Shown one piece after another: positions 7,677-60,212 of a stretch of 64,000 bases of DNA; position 1 is the stretch's first letter; the number at the start of each line of letters is the position of its first letter. The stretch is taken from NCBI GenBank assembly GCA_943357285.1, contig CALRGJ010000006.1, positions 10,428-74,427 on the forward strand. Direction: 5' to 3'. Below the pieces are notes generated by a model. It made no database searches, was not told the origin of the DNA, and was given only the letters and a program-made list of their open reading frames with translations. The stretch is from Candidatus Peribacteria bacterium. Lineage in GTDB: Bacteria; Patescibacteriota; Gracilibacteria; UBA1369; LOWO2-01-FULL-3. The position numbers and the translations under genes were made by a program.

Positions 7677-9935
7677 CTATTTACATGTAGGGGATTTTAC
7701 TGGTGCTTTGATGCGTACAAGCACGCTGGCATTTGGAGTAGCGATGTCAACGTAGTACGTTTTAAGCGTTGGAGGGGTTGTTGGATTGAAGGTAAGTGGA
7801 CCATCGTATGGATTCCAGACTTCGATCGGTGGCTGATTTTTTTCATCAACCAGGATCTTGATTCCTTCAGGACCTCCTTTAATCAATCCCACCATGGGGA
7901 GTTCATCACAACCTCCCTGTATGGAAGGAATCATGAAATAGCCCATAGGCATTAGTTCAACTGTAATGAAACTGTAGGTGTCGGTGCCAGGGATGAGGTG
8001 GGAAATTGACCACTGCCCACCTGGGGAACCGATCCACACAGAGAAGCCTTTCTCAGGGTCGCAGGTCCAGTTTTGAGTATCTACTAGACACTGCCCACCA
8101 ATGCACTTTCCCACCGGGCAGTTGTAGCAGGGATCCGCTTTGCACTTGTTGGCTGAGTTGCAGATCTGACCTTCCGGACATGAGGGACACAGTTGGCTGA
8201 GGCCATCGCATCCGGGATTTGTCATTGCACACTTGCCACATTCGCATCCGAGTTCTTCGCAGGACTGAACTTTGCATTTGTAGTGACATTTACCATCGAC
8301 AGCTGAGCAGAATTTGTCGTTGGGACATGTCCCGCAACTTCCGCCACACGAGTCCGAGCCGCACTCATTTTGGTAGCAGGCGGGCTTGCAGGTTTGTGTA
8401 TCCTTGCCGTCCGTGCTTGCATAAAAACTTCCAGCATCCTGCTCTCCTGTGCCGCCGCCGTACTGACCGCTGCCGGGATTTTCATCCTGAGAAACGGTGC
8501 TCTGACCTTGGCCGCACATGTAGCCCGACTGATTGCACTCGCACCCGCCCTGACACTTGTTTTTGTAACAGTAGCAGGGCGAAAGTGAAGTGATCATTCG
8601 CGCATACTCGCCGCGTGTCACGAATTCGTAGGGGTCGTATTGCAGAAGATCCTTGTCGATTCCGTTGTAGTAGGCGATGGTTTGCAGATACTTGTAGGAC
8701 CAGTCGCTGCTCTTGAGTTTCAGGAATTTGGCATACATGCCGGTCTTGAGTTCCGCCTTGTTGGCTTTGACCGCAGACTCGACTGCCATTTTCGCTGCTT
8801 CCGAGAAGTAAATCTCCTGTTCAGGGTTGAAGTGATCGTTGTCCTTGCTGATGACGCCGTACTTCACGCCGCAGACCACGAAGGGATAGAACCATTGAGA
8901 AGGATTTACATCCGTGAATGGTTCCAGAGTTCCTTCGCAGTCTTTGTCGAGACCGAAAAGAGCCAGTGCAATTTTCAGCGCTTCCGCTCGGGTGAGGTTA
9001 TCATCCTTGTGGAATTTACCGTCGCTTTTGCCGCTCACGGCACACTCGTGCCAGAGGTAGTTCACTGCCCAGGCAGTAGTGCTATCCGAAGAACTGAGAT
9101 CCTTGAAAGGAGTCTCGCTCTTGTTCTCGCAGTCCTCATTCATCGGGCATTGCATCTCGCAGACTTGAGGCGGATCAGGCTCCTGCTCTGGAGGGGTGGG
9201 TTCTTCTTGAGAATTATCCACTTCCGAGCAGTCAGCCTTTTCCACGTTTGTCAGCTTGAGCGCAGTGTAGATGCCATCCGTATAGATGTCGTTGCCGACG
9301 ATGCACTTAGGCACGCCGTTGCCGTCAGTGAATCCCATCTCGATGGGCAGGTGAGTCTCGCAGTCCTCGAACTGGAAGTGGAGGTGAGCACCTGAAACAT
9401 TTCCAGTCTTGCCGATTTCTCCGATCTTAAGACCCTGACACACCTCCATATCCTGAGCCACGCTTACGGACCCATCAAGCATGTGTGCGTAACGAGTGCA
9501 GATGTTGTTGCCATGATTGAGCAGCACGAAGTTGCCCCAGCCCTTGGATTTGCCAATCTCCTTCACGGAGCCGTCAGCAGAAGCCAACACTGAATCACCC
9601 ATGTCAGAATCTTCAGGCAAGCTGAAGTCCCAACTGAAAACCGCGTGCTCCAGAACAGTATGAGACGAATCGCAGAACGAGAGCGGATCTGTACCATACT
9701 TTTGATCGCACGCCTCGCAATGCATGCCCCAGGACTGAGTGATTTCCCAGTTGTAGCCCTGCGGCACCGGCACCTTGAAGTTGCTGCCGATGAGGTGGAG
9801 GCGATTGATCGAGTAGCCGACTTCAGTAGAAGTAGTATCGAATTGAATGGAGTTAATCTCCTTTTCCTTGTTGTTGGAATTGCACGCCGTGATCACCATG
9901 ATCATGACGAGCAGCTTGTAGATGTTGTGCAGCAT
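7677..9935 (-). CDS. lipoprotein with M23 peptidase domain, three SLH-like repeats and a cysteine-rich region
   Basis: Lipobox VITAC. M23 motifs (GSVKEIG...GNFVLLNHG...TRYAHM...GNVSGAHLHFQFE). SLH-like repeats (FKDLSSSD..TAWAVNYL...LTRAEALKIA; FTDVNPSQWFYPFV). A Cys-dense block (CGSDSCGGSCGTCPNDKFC...). Strong SD aaGGAGAAAgctcATG. The gene is much richer in G+C than its neighbours. Confidence 0.85.
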   Translation of the reverse strand: MLHNIYKLLVMIMVITACNSNNKEKEINSIQFDTTSTEVGYSINRLHLIGSNFKVPVPQGYNWEITQSWGMHCEACDQKYGTDPLSFCDSSHTVLEHAVFSWDFSLPEDSDMGDSVLASADGSVKEIGKSKGWGNFVLLNHGNNICTRYAHMLDGSVSVAQDMEVCQGLKIGEIGKTGNVSGAHLHFQFEDCETHLPIEMGFTDGNGVPKCIVGNDIYTDGIYTALKLTNVEKADCSEVDNSQEEPTPPEQEPDPPQVCEMQCPMNEDCENKSETPFKDLSSSDSTTAWAVNYLWHECAVSGKSDGKFHKDDNLTRAEALKIALALFGLDKDCEGTLEPFTDVNPSQWFYPFVVCGVKYGVISKDNDHFNPEQEIYFSEAAKMAVESAVKANKAELKTGMYAKFLKLKSSDWSYKYLQTIAYYNGIDKDLLQYDPYEFVTRGEYARMITSLSPCYCYKNKCQGGCECNQSGYMCGQGQSTVSQDENPGSGQYGGGTGEQDAGSFYASTDGKDTQTCKPACYQNECGSDSCGGSCGTCPNDKFCSAVDGKCHYKCKVQSCEELGCECGKCAMTNPGCDGLSQLCPSCPEGQICNSANKCKADPCYNCPVGKCIGGQCLVDTQNWTCDPEKGFSVWIGSPGGQWSISHLIPGTDTYSFITVELMPMGYFMIPSIQGGCDELPMVGLIKGGPEGIKILVDEKNQPPIEVWNPYDGPLTFNPTTPPTLKTYYVDIATPNASVLVRIKAPVKSPTCK

Positions 9936-57599: not shown

Positions 57600-57696
57600 A
57601 TAAAAATAGTTAGGAATTTGCTGACGAATTATAGACCAAGCGGATATATATTCAAAGTTTTTTGTGAATTTCTCTTTTTTAATTTATGATACACAC

Positions 57697-58461
57697 ATGA
57701 AATTAATTTCTTGGAATGTAAACGGTCTTCGCGCTGCCGAAAAGAAAGGCTTTATAAAATGGCTTCACAAAGAGAAACCGGACATTATTGGGCTGCAGGA
57801 AATTAAGGGACACGAGCATCAATTCAGTAAAGAATTATTAGCTCCGGATCATTATCATGCTTATTTTAATCCGGCTCAAAGGAAGGGATATTCTGGTACA
57901 GCTATTTATACTAAAGTTCAACCTCATGAGATTTTGAATGGCTTCGGCGTTGAAAAATTCGATTCCGAAGGGCGTACGCAAATTGCTGATTACGGAGATT
58001 TTGTTTTTATAAATATATATTTTCCTAATGGGCAGAGGGATCAGGAAAGATTGGATTACAAAATGGCTTTCTACGATGAGGCTTTGAAATATTTTGATAA
58101 ATGTGTGAAGGAAGGGAAGAAACTTTTTATTACCGGAGATTACAATACAGCGCACAAAGAAATAGATCTTGCTCGTCCTAAAGAAAATGAGGGGACTTCC
58201 GGCTTCTTACCAATTGAACGCCGATGGCTAGATAAATTAGTGGACCATGGATTCATTGATTGTTTCCGCGAATTTAATAAAACTCCGGAGTGTTACACTT
58301 GGTGGAGTATGCGTGGTGGTGCGAGATATAGAAATGTTGGCTGGAGAATTGATTATTTTTTCTGCTCAAAAAACGCTCGCAGCATGGTGAAAGATTGTTA
58401 CCATTTGCCTGAGATAATGGGATCGGATCATTGTCCGGTGGTGCTTTTTATTACACCTTGA
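57697..58461 (+). CDS. xth: exodeoxyribonuclease III
   Basis: The ATG at 57697 gives MKLISWNVNGLRA...GLQEIK...GDYNTAH...WWSMRGGARYRNVGWRIDY...GSDHCPV. Confidence 0.93.
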   Translation: MKLISWNVNGLRAAEKKGFIKWLHKEKPDIIGLQEIKGHEHQFSKELLAPDHYHAYFNPAQRKGYSGTAIYTKVQPHEILNGFGVEKFDSEGRTQIADYGDFVFINIYFPNGQRDQERLDYKMAFYDEALKYFDKCVKEGKKLFITGDYNTAHKEIDLARPKENEGTSGFLPIERRWLDKLVDHGFIDCFREFNKTPECYTWWSMRGGARYRNVGWRIDYFFCSKNARSMVKDCYHLPEIMGSDHCPVVLFITP

Positions 58462-58472
58462 AAGAACTGGCA

Positions 58473-58488
58473 GGGTAGTAATTATAGA
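58473..58488 (+). repeat. motif copy L: GGGTAGTAA-tt-ATAGA
   Basis: Read directly. It is the left boundary of the GC island. Confidence 0.8.
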
Positions 58489-58554
58489 GGTTCGAGGTCC
58501 GGGACGGCGCTTTGACTGTGGCTTTCGCCACGTCGCAGCAATCCTTCTCGAAAA

Positions 58555-58573
58555 TCTATTCACATTACTACCC
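58555..58573 (-). repeat. motif copy M: GGGTAGTAA-tgtga-ATAGA (on minus strand)
   Basis: The plus strand reads TCTAT-tcaca-TTACTACCC. It pairs with copy L to close a ~100-nt hairpin. Confidence 0.8.
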
Positions 58574-58658
58574 AACCAGCTCAGTCATCGTCTCCGCGGA
58601 GCTCGCCCAGCTTTGGGGGTCATCGCCATGCGGATTGGATTGTAGTAGCCCTCGGGAC

Positions 58659-58686
58659 GGTCACGTAGCGAGCTCTGCTACTGACC
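58659..58686 (-). terminator. GC-rich stem-loop 10 nt after the second mini-ORF (no T-run)
   Basis: Minus strand: GGTCAGTAGC-agagctc-GCTAC(g)TGACC. Confidence 0.3.
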
Positions 58687-58696
58687 GTACCTTTGG

Positions 58697-58864
58697 CTAC
58701 GCGCGGCTGCCGGCACGGCGAGCACCGAGTCGCTGCACCTCCTTGCGGTGGTGAGCGATCTCGTTCACGGGGACATCGTGGTTCGGTCGGCACGACGTGC
58801 AGCGAACCGTCTTCTGCTTGGAGCCCTGGGAGGGCTTCATTTGCCGATCATCTCGTTTAGACAT
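58697..58864 (-). CDS. 55-aa Arg/Lys-rich protein with CX2CX3HX8H motif (not in supplied ORF track)
   Basis: gaGGAGAAAtcaccgATG. Hand translation: MSKRDDRQMKPSQGSKQKTVRCTSCRPNHDVPVNEIAHHRKEVQRLGARRAGSRA-stop. GC3-rich codons. It is a paralogue of the upstream ORF in the V.CT.C.RP.H....A.H segment. Confidence 0.45.
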   Translation of the reverse strand: MSKRDDRQMKPSQGSKQKTVRCTSCRPNHDVPVNEIAHHRKEVQRLGARRAGSRA

Positions 58865-58911
58865 CGGTGATTTCTCCTCTTGGGGCGCCGTAGCGCCGGT
58901 TGTTCGTGTTG

Positions 58912-59172
58912 TCAGACGCCGAGAACCTTGCGGATCTCGGTCGGCATGTGCTCTGCAGGAACGTGCGCATAGGCAGCGCGCATGTTGCGCAGACGGATGA
59001 CGGCCTCGCGGTCGCTCACCGGGGCGGGGGGCTGCTGCTGACGCGTGGCCTTGCGGTCACCCTTGCTCGCGAGCGAGTTGAGGTGCGCGGCGAGGTCCTT
59101 GCTTTGCAGCTTGTGGGGGCGATCGCACTCGGTGCAGGTGACGTAGTCCCGGCGATTGGGCTGAATACGCAT
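58912..59172 (-). CDS. 86-aa basic protein with CX2CX3HX9H motif
   Basis: caGGAGAAAccaagcATG. Protein begins MRIQPNRRDYVTCTECDRPHKLQSKDLAAHLNSL... GC3-rich codon usage is consistent over the whole ORF. Confidence 0.55.
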   Translation of the reverse strand: MRIQPNRRDYVTCTECDRPHKLQSKDLAAHLNSLASKGDRKATRQQQPPAPVSDREAVIRLRNMRAAYAHVPAEHMPTEIRKVLGV

Positions 59173-59197
59173 GCTTGGTTTCTCCTGACGGTGAACT

Positions 59198-59217
59198 CTC
59201 GAGATTTCTTTCTCGAG
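59198..59217. promoter_or_regulatory. perfect palindrome CTCGAGA-N6-TCTCGAG in the leader of the 86-aa ORF
   Basis: Read directly. It lies between the putative minus-strand promoter (59299-59273) and the SD (59185-59179). Confidence 0.35.
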
Positions 59218-59274
59218 TGTGTGGTTGGTTCCTCGGGATACTACATTTCTCCCGAAGACTCTGTAACGTGAAAT

Positions 59275-59289
59275 TCTATGTTACTACCC
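59275..59289 (-). repeat. motif copy R: GGGTAGTAA-c-ATAGA (on minus strand)
   Basis: The plus strand reads TCTAT-g-TTACTACCC. It is the right boundary and lies between a TTGACA and a TAGAAT on the minus strand. Confidence 0.8.
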
Positions 59290-59588
59290 TTGTTGTCAAA
59301 TTGTGAACGGTCGAACTTCGACCGCTCTCAAATTGCTTTGGAGGGGAGTTACAAGACCTTCACGGACAAGGATACTATTAGAAACTTCTCGATCACGCAA
59401 GGGTAAATTCGTTAATCAGTATAATGTTTTTTGACAGGAGTCAAGTTTTGCTTTAAATCGTACGAATTAATTTAGGAAAATTTTAAGAAAATTTAAGAAA
59501 CGCCTGTTACCATTTTAGGCAAGCAAAGATTTCACAAAGATCTTTGCAATTAAAAAAAATACTACTATTATTCGTAACCCAAGATCAC

Positions 59589-60212
59589 ATGAAAAAGGAA
59601 ATTATGACTCTCTCAAAATTAGCAGCAAATGTAGGTCAGTTCTCTGTGCTAGTAAAAAAACTATCTGTTAATGTAGATAAATTATCAACCAGGATAGTAG
59701 AAATGGATGAGAAGTTTGAAAAGAGATTCGATGGCGTAGATAAAAAAATCGATGGAGTAGATAAAAAAATAGATGCAGTGGATAAAAAAGTCGATGCAGT
59801 GGAGAAAAAAATCGGTGCAGTGGATAAAAAAGTCGATGCAGTAGAGAAAAAAGTCGATGCAGTGGAGAAGAGATTAACTGTCGTGGAAGATCAATTTGAT
59901 AGTCTAGCCTCTTCGACAGCCAGTGGTTTTTTGCACTTGCAAAATCATTTTGACAAACGCTTTTTAGAGATGGATGAAAGACTCTCCAGTCTGGAAGAGA
60001 GGGTCTCGGCCATTGATCAGCACATCAGTAAAATGCATCTGGACGTTGTTGATATAAAAGTTGATGTGAAAGAATTGAGAGACAGAATATCTTCTCTAGA
60101 ATGTAGAGTTGCAGGCTTGGAATATAGAAGTGGACGAGTGGAAGACGCTGTCGTTTCGCTGGAAGAACGCATCTCACACATAGAGAATCAGCTCGGACTC
60201 TCCAAAGTTTAG
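59589..60212 (+). CDS. coiled-coil protein with heptad tandem repeats
   Basis: The ATG at 59589 gives MKKEIMTLSKL...; the track starts at a TTG at 59544. Central (G/A)VDKK(I/V)D x7, then further heptad-like sequence. Confidence 0.6.
   Translation: MKKEIMTLSKLAANVGQFSVLVKKLSVNVDKLSTRIVEMDEKFEKRFDGVDKKIDGVDKKIDAVDKKVDAVEKKIGAVDKKVDAVEKKVDAVEKRLTVVEDQFDSLASSTASGFLHLQNHFDKRFLEMDERLSSLEERVSAIDQHISKMHLDVVDIKVDVKELRDRISSLECRVAGLEYRSGRVEDAVVSLEERISHIENQLGLSKV
59730..59876 (+). repeat. 7 tandem copies of a 21-bp coding repeat
   Basis: The unit gatgSMgtRgaKaaaaaaRtc is repeated head-to-tail from 59730. The units encode DGVDKKI/DAVDKKV/DAVEKKI and similar. Confidence 0.9.

Follow-up and report, generated by a model that had tools for sequence, protein, structure and literature searches.

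The window analysed here, a 64,000-nt stretch of a Candidatus Peregrinibacteria genome (contig CALRGJ010000006.1, positions 10,428 to 74,427), contains a block of 0.8–0.9 kb, hereafter the island, that is 60–67% GC in a host genome of 38% GC (1.21 Mb in 25 contigs, 99% complete). The island is present in one copy in its own genome and is flanked on one side by xth (57664–58461, plus strand), which is convergent with it, and on the other by a coiled-coil gene and then pepS; the neighbour is a sigma gene in genus g5 and dsbA in the relative L017. Our analysis shows that positions 58462–59400 of the minus strand make up one compact accessory gene unit, in which a promoter-like site is followed by a ~100-nt 5′ hairpin, by two modules each consisting of a hairpin, a Shine-Dalgarno (SD) site and an open reading frame (ORF), and by a structured 3′ untranslated region (UTR) with a terminal 119-nt hairpin. 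Its features are listed below; the motif copy and both SD sites were read from the sequence, and the hairpin next to the ORF1 SD from the sequence and from relatives, which are denoted by handles such as L007 or G082.

59372–59400, minus strand: candidate sigma-70-type promoter, with −35 element TTGCGT (59400–59395), 17-nt spacer and −10 element TAGTAT (59377–59372), ending ~8 nt before the 5′ hairpin.
59267–59364, minus strand: long hairpin of the 5′ leader, ~98 nt, whose 3′ arm bears GGGTAGTAA.
59281–59289, minus strand: copy a(5′) of the GGGTAGTAA motif.
59231–59257, minus strand: leader hairpin 2, CUUCGGGA-N11-UCCCGAGG, retained in L007 and L008 through G-C/G-U/A-U changes and absent in L010.
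59198–59217, minus strand: hairpin immediately 5′ of the ORF1 SD, CUCGAGA-N6-UCUCGAG.
59179–59186, minus strand: ORF1 SD, AGGAGAAA.
58912–59172, minus strand: ORF1, 86 aa, with a CCHH domain, a variable linker and a conserved C-terminal helical domain.
58884–58897, minus strand: intercistronic GC hairpin GGCGC-N-GCGCC, immediately 5′ of the ORF2 SD, with loop or stem changed in L007, L008, L010 and G082.
58871–58878, minus strand: ORF2 SD, AGGAGAAA.
58697–58864, minus strand: ORF2, 55 aa, with a basic N-terminal arm followed by a CCHH beta-beta-alpha domain.
58645–58700, minus strand: variable 3′ UTR hairpin right after the ORF2 stop, unconserved between lineages.
58594–58633, minus strand: 3′ UTR hairpin A, CCGC..GGC..CCC-loop-GGG..GCU..GCGG, with conserved stem and variable loop.
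58467–58585, minus strand: long 3′ UTR hairpin B, 119 nt, with a GAAA-capped apex, abutting the xth stop codon (58459–58461), then UUCUUUC.

At the place equivalent to the candidate promoter, a TTGnnn-N16-18-TAnAnT/TTAAAT pattern was found in all lineages (L007, L008, L010, L017, G082, L012 and G059). Every version has a small hairpin immediately 5′ of each SD, the sequence of which differs; the counterpart of the hairpin before the ORF1 SD is CGCAAGA/UCUUGCG in L008, and other self-complementary sequences are present in L010 and G082.

An earlier note, made from the sequence alone, had described the two ORFs as tandem mini-proteins, and the coordinates listed above agree with those that it gave. 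Both proteins are basic, as it said (K+R/D+E of 16/9 for ORF1 and 14/5 for ORF2), and the SD core AGGAGAAA is common to both genes, 6 nt before each ATG (read on the plus strand as TTTCTCCT at 59179–59186 and 58871–58878). A 47-nt gap lies between the genes, each of which is preceded by a hairpin and an SD of its own. The SD and ATG were kept in all versions compared, which come from independent assemblies, and the indels that distinguish the ORF1 linkers of relatives are in frame. The pairwise ratio of nonsynonymous to synonymous change (dN/dS) was 0.30–0.39 for ORF1 and 0.16–0.23 for ORF2; within ORF1, it was 0.30 for the zinc finger, 0.28 for the C-terminal domain and 0.86 for the linker. 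GC content at the three codon positions (GC1/GC2/GC3) was 0.69/0.47/0.83, the order expected of a sense frame. Because the SD and ATG are kept, the indels are in frame and both dN/dS and the GC1/GC2/GC3 order are those of genes, ORF1 and ORF2 are, on this comparative evidence, both coding. The earlier note had allowed that a plus-strand frame might prove to be the one under purifying selection; with dN/dS well below 1 and the GC order given above, we found such selection on the minus-strand frames. The plus-strand ORFs (80, 123 and 67 aa) were rejected as candidates, as they are without an SD and have dN/dS ≥1, except for the frame that shares third codon positions.

Alternatively, no proteins might be made, the ORFs being accidents of GC-rich sequence in a non-coding RNA or an assembly chimera: GC-rich DNA opens long frames on both strands, and every version has an open antisense frame opposite ORF1. 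However, identical junctions between the island and host genes, in one orientation, were present in at least 10 independent assemblies, and the SD and ATG, the in-frame indels, dN/dS, GC1>GC2, invariant Cys/His residues and confident domain models all fit the sense frames; we regard this explanation as scarcely credible.

The motif segments of the two proteins, ..VTCTECDRPHKLQSKDLAAHL.. in ORF1 and ..VRCTSCRPNHDVPVNEIAHHR.. in ORF2, fall within an ungapped BLASTP alignment of 39 residues (E = 4e-4). Both have the spacing C-x2-C-x3-H-x9-H, and the last spacing can be read as x8 or x9 in ORF2, which has HH. The shared motif that the earlier note proposed was thus borne out, but the optional residue "(x)" that it placed within the motif is unneeded, as the alignment has no gap. 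Across the 15 homologues aligned, C13, C16 and H30 never vary and H20 is found in 14. This conservation of the quartet, on which the earlier note had made its proposal depend, exceeds chance. Of 1.84 billion representative proteins, only seven matched a profile built from three ORF1 orthologues at E ≤ 0.001. These were ORF1 orthologues and short proteins with the N-terminal motif only, together with P0006, a repetitive 363-aa protein that we judged to be spurious. Because the ORF1 profile also retrieved P0009 and P0010, ORF2-type proteins encoded by the second genes of such pairs elsewhere (E of 7e-5 to 6e-4), and because all 15 members can be aligned, we take ORF1 and ORF2 to be paralogues of one small Cys/His domain, as had been suggested.

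AlphaFold (AF2) predicted a beta-beta-alpha core for both proteins, in keeping with the zinc-finger-like fold put forward earlier. The ORF1 model (mean pLDDT 75) has strands at residues 10–13 and 20–23 and helices at 24–38, 54–67 and 78–84, and the ORF2 model (mean pLDDT 76) has strands at 18–21 and 28–31 and a helix at 32–51. In ORF1, the CCHH beta-beta-alpha domain occupies residues 10–38 and is followed by a variable Q/P/S-rich linker and then by the conserved C-terminal helical domain (RLRNMRAAW-HVPAEHMP-R-VLGV). The nearest shapes found by Foldseek were all beta-beta-alpha zinc fingers, namely the RAD18 UBZ, U11-48K CHHC, Sgf11 and C2H2 fingers, with a root-mean-square deviation (rmsd) of 0.8 Å over 33 columns for the RAD18 UBZ. 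The best match in a sequence-profile search of the PDB was Sgf11, at a non-significant E = 0.07, and no Pfam, NCBIfam, PHROG or PADLOC family was at or near threshold for ORF1 or ORF2; the family, which the earlier note did not recognise, is likewise without a match in any of these five collections. We take the domain to be a new sequence family within a known fold class, and it may bind zinc.

Assignment to the established families failed on specific grounds. For zf-C2H2, the spacing is C-x2-C-x3-H-x9-H rather than C-x2-4-C-x12-H-x3-5-H, and none of the 15 members matched a zf-C2H2 Pfam family at E ≤ 5, the only C2H2-type matches being weak, sub-threshold ones in the first ORFs (ORFa) of L012 and G059. 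For CHHC (PF05253), no Cys lies three residues past the second His, and the best Pfam E was 0.08, in two of the 15 members. No ROS_MUCR Pfam match was found, and the predicted domain has two strands and one helix. The zinc-binding anti-sigma (ZAS) signature H-x3-C-x2-C is absent, the C-x2-C here preceding the His.

CHHC fingers, which are found in eukaryotes (U11-48K, TRM13 and GTSF1) and have RNA-related partners, resemble the island domain in being ~30-residue beta-beta-alpha mini-fingers with a His in strand 2 and an H-x9-H that runs into the helix. The ORF2 model superposes on 2vy4 at 1.9 Å over 29 columns, and GTSF1 appeared in the PDB sequence search (E = 5.5) beside the two sub-threshold Pfam matches (E = 0.08). 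The island spacing C-x2-C-x3-H-x9-H nevertheless lacks the final Cys of the CHHC pattern C-x5-H-x9-H-x3-C, and no match was significant. Sgf11, UBZ4 (RAD18) C2HC and C2H2 fingers, which bind ubiquitin, nucleosomes or DNA inside large eukaryotic proteins, share a CxxC knuckle followed by a His-bearing helix, and the Sgf11 profile alignment (E = 0.07) places ..C-x2-C..LAAHL.. in register; their spacing, however, is C-x2-C-x11-12-H-x3-5-H/C, and the island proteins reach no threshold of these families. The Ros/MucR Cys2His2 finger is similar in being a bacterial, single-finger, basic DNA-binding regulator, but it has a larger beta-beta-beta-alpha-alpha domain in a protein of ~140 aa and is alphaproteobacterial, whereas the island encodes tandem paralogues of 50–100 aa. 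The one-domain zinc-finger micro-proteins of Haloferax volcanii (PMC6562870, PMC11241148) are likewise stand-alone proteins of <100 aa with essentially one zinc-binding mini-domain, but they are archaeal and carry two C(P)XCG knuckles (C4 zinc ribbons), and the abstracts of those reports mention no structured UTRs or GC island.

The two long hairpins of the unit are conserved to an unusual degree. We compared the window's version (WIN in all strain comparisons) with L007 and L010, from which it differs at 35–41% of synonymous sites (pS, synonymous difference) in pepS and xth. The 5′ hairpin had no differences over the 85 nt compared, where ~30 would be expected under neutrality, and hairpin B had 0–1 differences over 109 nt, where ~40 would be expected; these neutral expectations are our estimates from the pS of 0.35–0.41 of the flanking genes. 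The 5′ hairpin was 100% identical in 7 of the 8 versions compared. Of its 36 pairs (91.5% of cells paired), 6 showed compensatory change, compared to 1.7 ± 1.1 in shuffles, none of 500 of which reached 6; for hairpin B (42 pairs, 93% paired) the figure was 4 of 42, with 2 of 500 shuffles. The compensatory double changes came from the distant versions G082, L013 and L017, and sliding the register by 1–3 columns left 0–1 compensatory pairs. G·U cells outnumbered A·C cells by 13:2 and 17:6, which argues that the ORF-sense strand, on which the structures were themselves derived, is the folding strand. The whole predicted transcript of 907 nt had a folding z score of −8.65. As judged from these alignments, the untranslated hairpins are far more conserved than neighbouring synonymous sites and co-vary as RNA on the ORF-sense strand. 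The earlier note had offered the motif copies and leader palindromes as candidate binding sites; they are indeed conserved elements, but the compensatory changes and G·U pairs make them better seen as parts of RNA hairpins than as isolated DNA operators.

A covariance model of hairpin B found one copy per genome and only in island-bearing genomes, so a repeated regulatory or terminator element was rejected. An 18-nt long-range pairing between the leader and the variable 3′ UTR was also discarded, as it is not conserved in L007. Rfam identified one tRNA in the whole window and, within 58300–59600, no match better than E = 2, all far below thresholds. A scan of metagenome contigs for CCGTTCA-N8-18-AGGGTAGTA returned at least 120 loci, and those listed were all chance matches by blastn.

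The motif GGGTAGTAA occurs three times in the window, as the earlier note had observed (58473–58481, plus strand; 58565–58573 and 59281–59289, minus strand), compared to 0.20 expected from shuffles, none of 100 of which reached 3. The whole 1.21-Mb genome holds five copies, and neither of the two outside the island is in a promoter-like context. Of the three island copies, one provides the 3′ arm of the 5′ hairpin, the opposite arm of which is a degenerate fourth copy, GUAACUCCCC. The other two, at 58565–58573 (minus strand) and 58473–58481 (plus strand), are the arms of hairpin B and pair as its base helix GGGUAGUAAU/AUUACUACCC. Mimicry of rRNA was rejected because GGGTAGTAA is absent from the rRNA contig. 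The resulting layout of arms, a′..a – ORFs – a..a′, recurs with altered letters in L017, G059 and L012. The a/a′ arms are GGGUAGUAA/UUACUACCC in the window, at the base of both terminal hairpins, GGGUAGC/GCUACCC in G059 and GGGCAGC/GCUGCCC in L012, with a′ at both ends in the latter two. In L012 and G059, the 3′-terminal arm is complementary to the 5′ motif at 9 of 9 positions; in G059, this arm fits its local partner less well, and the 9 positions include one that is mismatched in its own 3′ hairpin. Such concerted change of the arms suggests one of three things: a common binding partner, end-to-end pairing of the transcript, or gene conversion between copies.

All relatives found share one neighbourhood, in which pepS is followed by the island, by xth or a sigma gene and then by dsbA-bcp-DHFR. 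A DNA search found the island in 3 of the 205 genomes of the order, all of one genus, and a protein-profile search added one genome of a second genus (G059); a match in G072 (E = 0.009) was too weak to count. Among congeners of the window's genome, G084 has an empty site, at which convergent xth and pepS overlap by 4 nt (L155, G084:C43, 1501–3353). In another, G080, the 415 nt beyond xth, at the end of which the contig stops (L154, G080:C86, 1–415), are AT-rich and without ORFs; they hold a diverged core of the 5′ hairpin, a small hairpin followed by AAGGAG with no start codon, and an arm, ..AAGCTTACTACCCT. This G080 sequence resembles an island in decay. A scan of IMG/VR yielded no relative; tblastn against phages gave noise only (E ≥ 0.2), and tblastn against plasmids gave nothing. 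On this distribution, the unit is an accessory locus confined to one Peregrinibacteria family rather than a roaming element. In L017, a relative from Hainich groundwater, two genes lie between pepS and the island (1729–2299), encoding a 72-aa protein with a sub-threshold match to DUF5678 and a 115-aa retropepsin-like aspartyl protease (gag-asp_proteas, E = 1e-6).

The ORFs have histories that differ from those of their surroundings. WIN and L011 are 97.5% identical in nucleotide sequence in xth (pS 0.12) and have identical 3′ UTRs, but their ORF2 sequences differ at a pS of 0.57 and their ORF1 sequences are 61% identical in nucleotides. Between WIN and L007, pS was 0.35 for pepS, 0.23 for ORF1 and 0.62 for ORF2. 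The C-terminal half of ORF1 in L008 is that of L009, and its N-terminal half is nearer to WIN; the start of the L008 ORF2, the only part of it on the contig, is identical to L009 and 98% identical to WIN. This discordance in pS between xth or pepS and the two ORFs indicates, as far as the aligned versions reveal, that each ORF is exchanged between lineages by recombination, independently of the other ORF and of the rest of the genome.

GC3 of the island ORFs was 0.71–0.91 in all lineages, compared to 0.33–0.35 for pepS, xth and the coiled-coil gene. Because alleles that differ at up to 60% of synonymous sites are still GC-rich while the gene-less G080 remnant is AT-rich, the GC content of the island is, by this comparison, maintained rather than freshly imported. 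Shuffles fold about as well as the coding block (z = −1.4), so selection for RNA structure in the coding part was rejected as the cause of its GC-richness. High GC3 may instead be kept by frequent recombination, through GC-biased conversion, or by some other local force.

These observations bear on whether the island is a small mobile or invertible cassette from a GC-rich donor, with GGGTAGTAA serving as terminal repeats or recombination sites in the manner of a miniature inverted-repeat transposable element (MITE), an IS200-like end, an integron cassette or an invertible segment. Its composition (65% GC in a genome of 38%), a perfect 10-bp inverted repeat (AGGGTAGTAA/TTACTACCCT) that brackets 799 bp, a direct repeat of ~25 nt (GGGTAGTAA..AGA(A/T)TTTC) on either side of the GC-rich ORF block, and its presence in some members of the genus and absence from others would all suit such an origin. 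However, it is single-copy in each genome within a constant neighbourhood, with the same orientation in at least 10 assemblies; no transposase, integrase or invertase was found in or beside it, no target-site duplication was seen, and searches of other taxa, phages and plasmids yielded no relative. The arms GTAGTAAC/GTTACTAC, read directly, do not fit the integron-type attC core (RYYYAAC/GTTRRRY). Moreover, the G·U pairs and compensatory changes indicate RNA, and an allele pS of up to 0.6 with GC3 still at 0.7–0.9 means that the composition is maintained rather than recent. We consider a cassette very unlikely.

The same accessory distribution, in which one congener has an empty site and another a decayed remnant, would be expected of a conflict module, whether toxin-antitoxin-like, an addiction system or a phage defence or counter-defence locus, with alleles diversified by frequency-dependent selection. 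Two small tandem genes, old alleles shuffled independently of genome background, atypical composition and palindromes near the gene starts are all compatible with this explanation. Both proteins, however, are paralogues of one domain rather than a toxin and its antidote, no toxin-antitoxin (TA) or defence family was detected in PADLOC, Pfam, NCBIfam or PHROG, and dN/dS is well below 1 in both domains, without sign of an arms race. The 47-nt gap, with a separate SD and hairpin for each gene, also speaks against it; for a type II system in particular, there is no toxin/antitoxin fold pair, no TA family and a gap of this length between the genes. A conflict module seems to us unlikely.

The neighbourhood of the island raises a further possibility, that the mini-fingers are trans-acting regulators, either transcription factors or sigma partners, for example of the adjacent thiol-redox and DNA-repair genes, with the Cys/His–zinc site possibly acting as a redox sensor and the hairpins only stabilising or terminating the mRNA. 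Across genera, the island is always beside the dsbA-bcp(-DHFR) cluster, although synteny among close relatives is weak evidence and the immediate neighbour varies by lineage (xth, sigma or dsbA). In the second genus (L012, 817–1902; L149 of G059, 223–1287), where the island consists of a C2H2/C2HC-like ORFa and a CCHH ORFb, a sigma-70-family gene on the same strand follows it directly (Sigma70_r2 at 1.6e-7 in L012 and 8e-6 in G059; Sigma70_r4 at 2e-9 in G059). The window's genome has only a 24%-identical sigma, located elsewhere; such a gene adjoins the island in L012 and G059 and not in the window, and the anti-sigma signature HxxxCxxC is absent. Small basic beta-beta-alpha fingers typically bind DNA, but there are just two other genomic copies of GGGTAGTAA, neither of them promoter-like, and regulation in trans leaves the extreme hairpin conservation and the concerted change of arms unexplained. 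We rate this possibility as unlikely.

We tentatively prefer a reading in which the unit is transcribed as a bicistronic mRNA for two mini zinc fingers that bind nucleic acid, most plausibly the hairpins of that same mRNA, and so control its fate; we would put this a little short of an even chance. The two basic mini-fingers would bind nucleic acid, their most likely targets being the invariant hairpins of their own mRNA and possibly also the corresponding DNA. How stable the transcript is, or how well it is translated, would then depend on this binding, making the unit a self-contained autoregulatory RNA-protein module, and any further cellular or conflict-related target might drive the shuffling of alleles between strains. 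There are precedents for such control in phage Mu Com, which has a C4 finger, and in ribosomal-protein leaders: in each case, translation of an mRNA is controlled by a small protein, basic or with a zinc finger, that binds to a hairpin close to the ribosome-binding site. The island proteins differ in having no sequence or fold relation to these, and no rRNA mimicry was found in the island.

Several observations weigh against this autoregulatory interpretation. The covariation comes from just 3–6 distinct sequences, and the structures were derived from those same sequences. It may be that the terminal hairpins do no more than stabilise or terminate the mRNA and are not bound by the two proteins. 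The set of ligands is not fixed, as ORFa of L017 has Arg for the first His and also a CxCC, and ORF1 of G082 carries a CxCC variant; the coordination sphere of Ros/MucR proteins shows comparable plasticity, in that Asp may replace Cys and some members are without zinc (PMC9779718). Foldseek found no match in the PDB at E < 2 for either model, which is expected for a domain of ~30 residues. Finally, where an antisense frame has its third codon positions in common with the sense frame, its dN/dS is similar to that of the sense frame at ORF1 (0.36) and is 0.42 versus 0.23 in sense at ORF2; such a frame must mirror the sense frame. Its GC1<GC2 is the wrong order for coding, and the only grounds for excluding it are the SD, the GC1/GC2 order and motif conservation.

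A more elaborate version, which we think unlikely, would make the unit a bacterial RNA-protein module of a new kind, with interchangeable complementary arms at the two ends of the mRNA. These arms might let the transcript cyclise 5′–3′ or be clamped by the two mini zinc fingers, as in some RNA-virus genomes, while the invariant ends would act as homology arms for swaps of ORF alleles and GC-biased conversion at this hot spot would keep the ORFs GC-rich.

Many genes in the tiny genomes of candidate-phyla-radiation bacteria are unassigned. The island gives one such gap a definite structure: it encodes a previously undescribed family of bacterial proteins, predicted to be stand-alone mini zinc fingers, in association with two long RNA hairpins whose conservation exceeds that of their surroundings. 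If the proteins bind the hairpins, the unit would be a simple and portable RNA-protein pair. The island can also be viewed as a natural experiment in base composition, its 0.7-kb coding block having kept a GC3 of ~0.8 in a genome with a GC3 of ~0.34 despite deep allelic divergence. Should recombination be what maintains this GC-richness, the block would offer an unusually clear example, in a bacterium, of GC-biased conversion at a hot spot.

Other GC-rich stretches were noted in the same genome. At least seven further islands of 56–71% GC are present (C1:146931–147860, C3:816–1430, C4:55803–57049, C7:49807–52117, C8:8188–10828, C16:20271–21687 and C22:8054–8357), none of which shares sequence with the island studied here. 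They mostly encode large Cys-rich, Pro-rich or coiled-coil proteins, and those on C1 and C3 are just 0.6–0.9 kb, similar in size to the studied island. Within the window, a second GC-rich stretch (7677–9935, minus strand; 50–57% GC) is unrelated to the island and contains a single ORF of 752 aa, with a lipoprotein-like N-terminal leader, an HxH region that resembles an M23 peptidase by eye and a long Cys-rich C-terminal part.

The coiled-coil gene that adjoins the island (59544–60212, plus strand) contains tandem 21-nt (heptad) repeats at about 59730–59876 and is strain-variable: L007 lacks it, with pepS and the island as immediate neighbours, and L010 has a shorter version (169 aa). The promoter of this gene may be a perfect TATAAT at 59420–59425 (plus strand), which lies between the divergent genes, ~120 nt before the start of the coiled-coil ORF.

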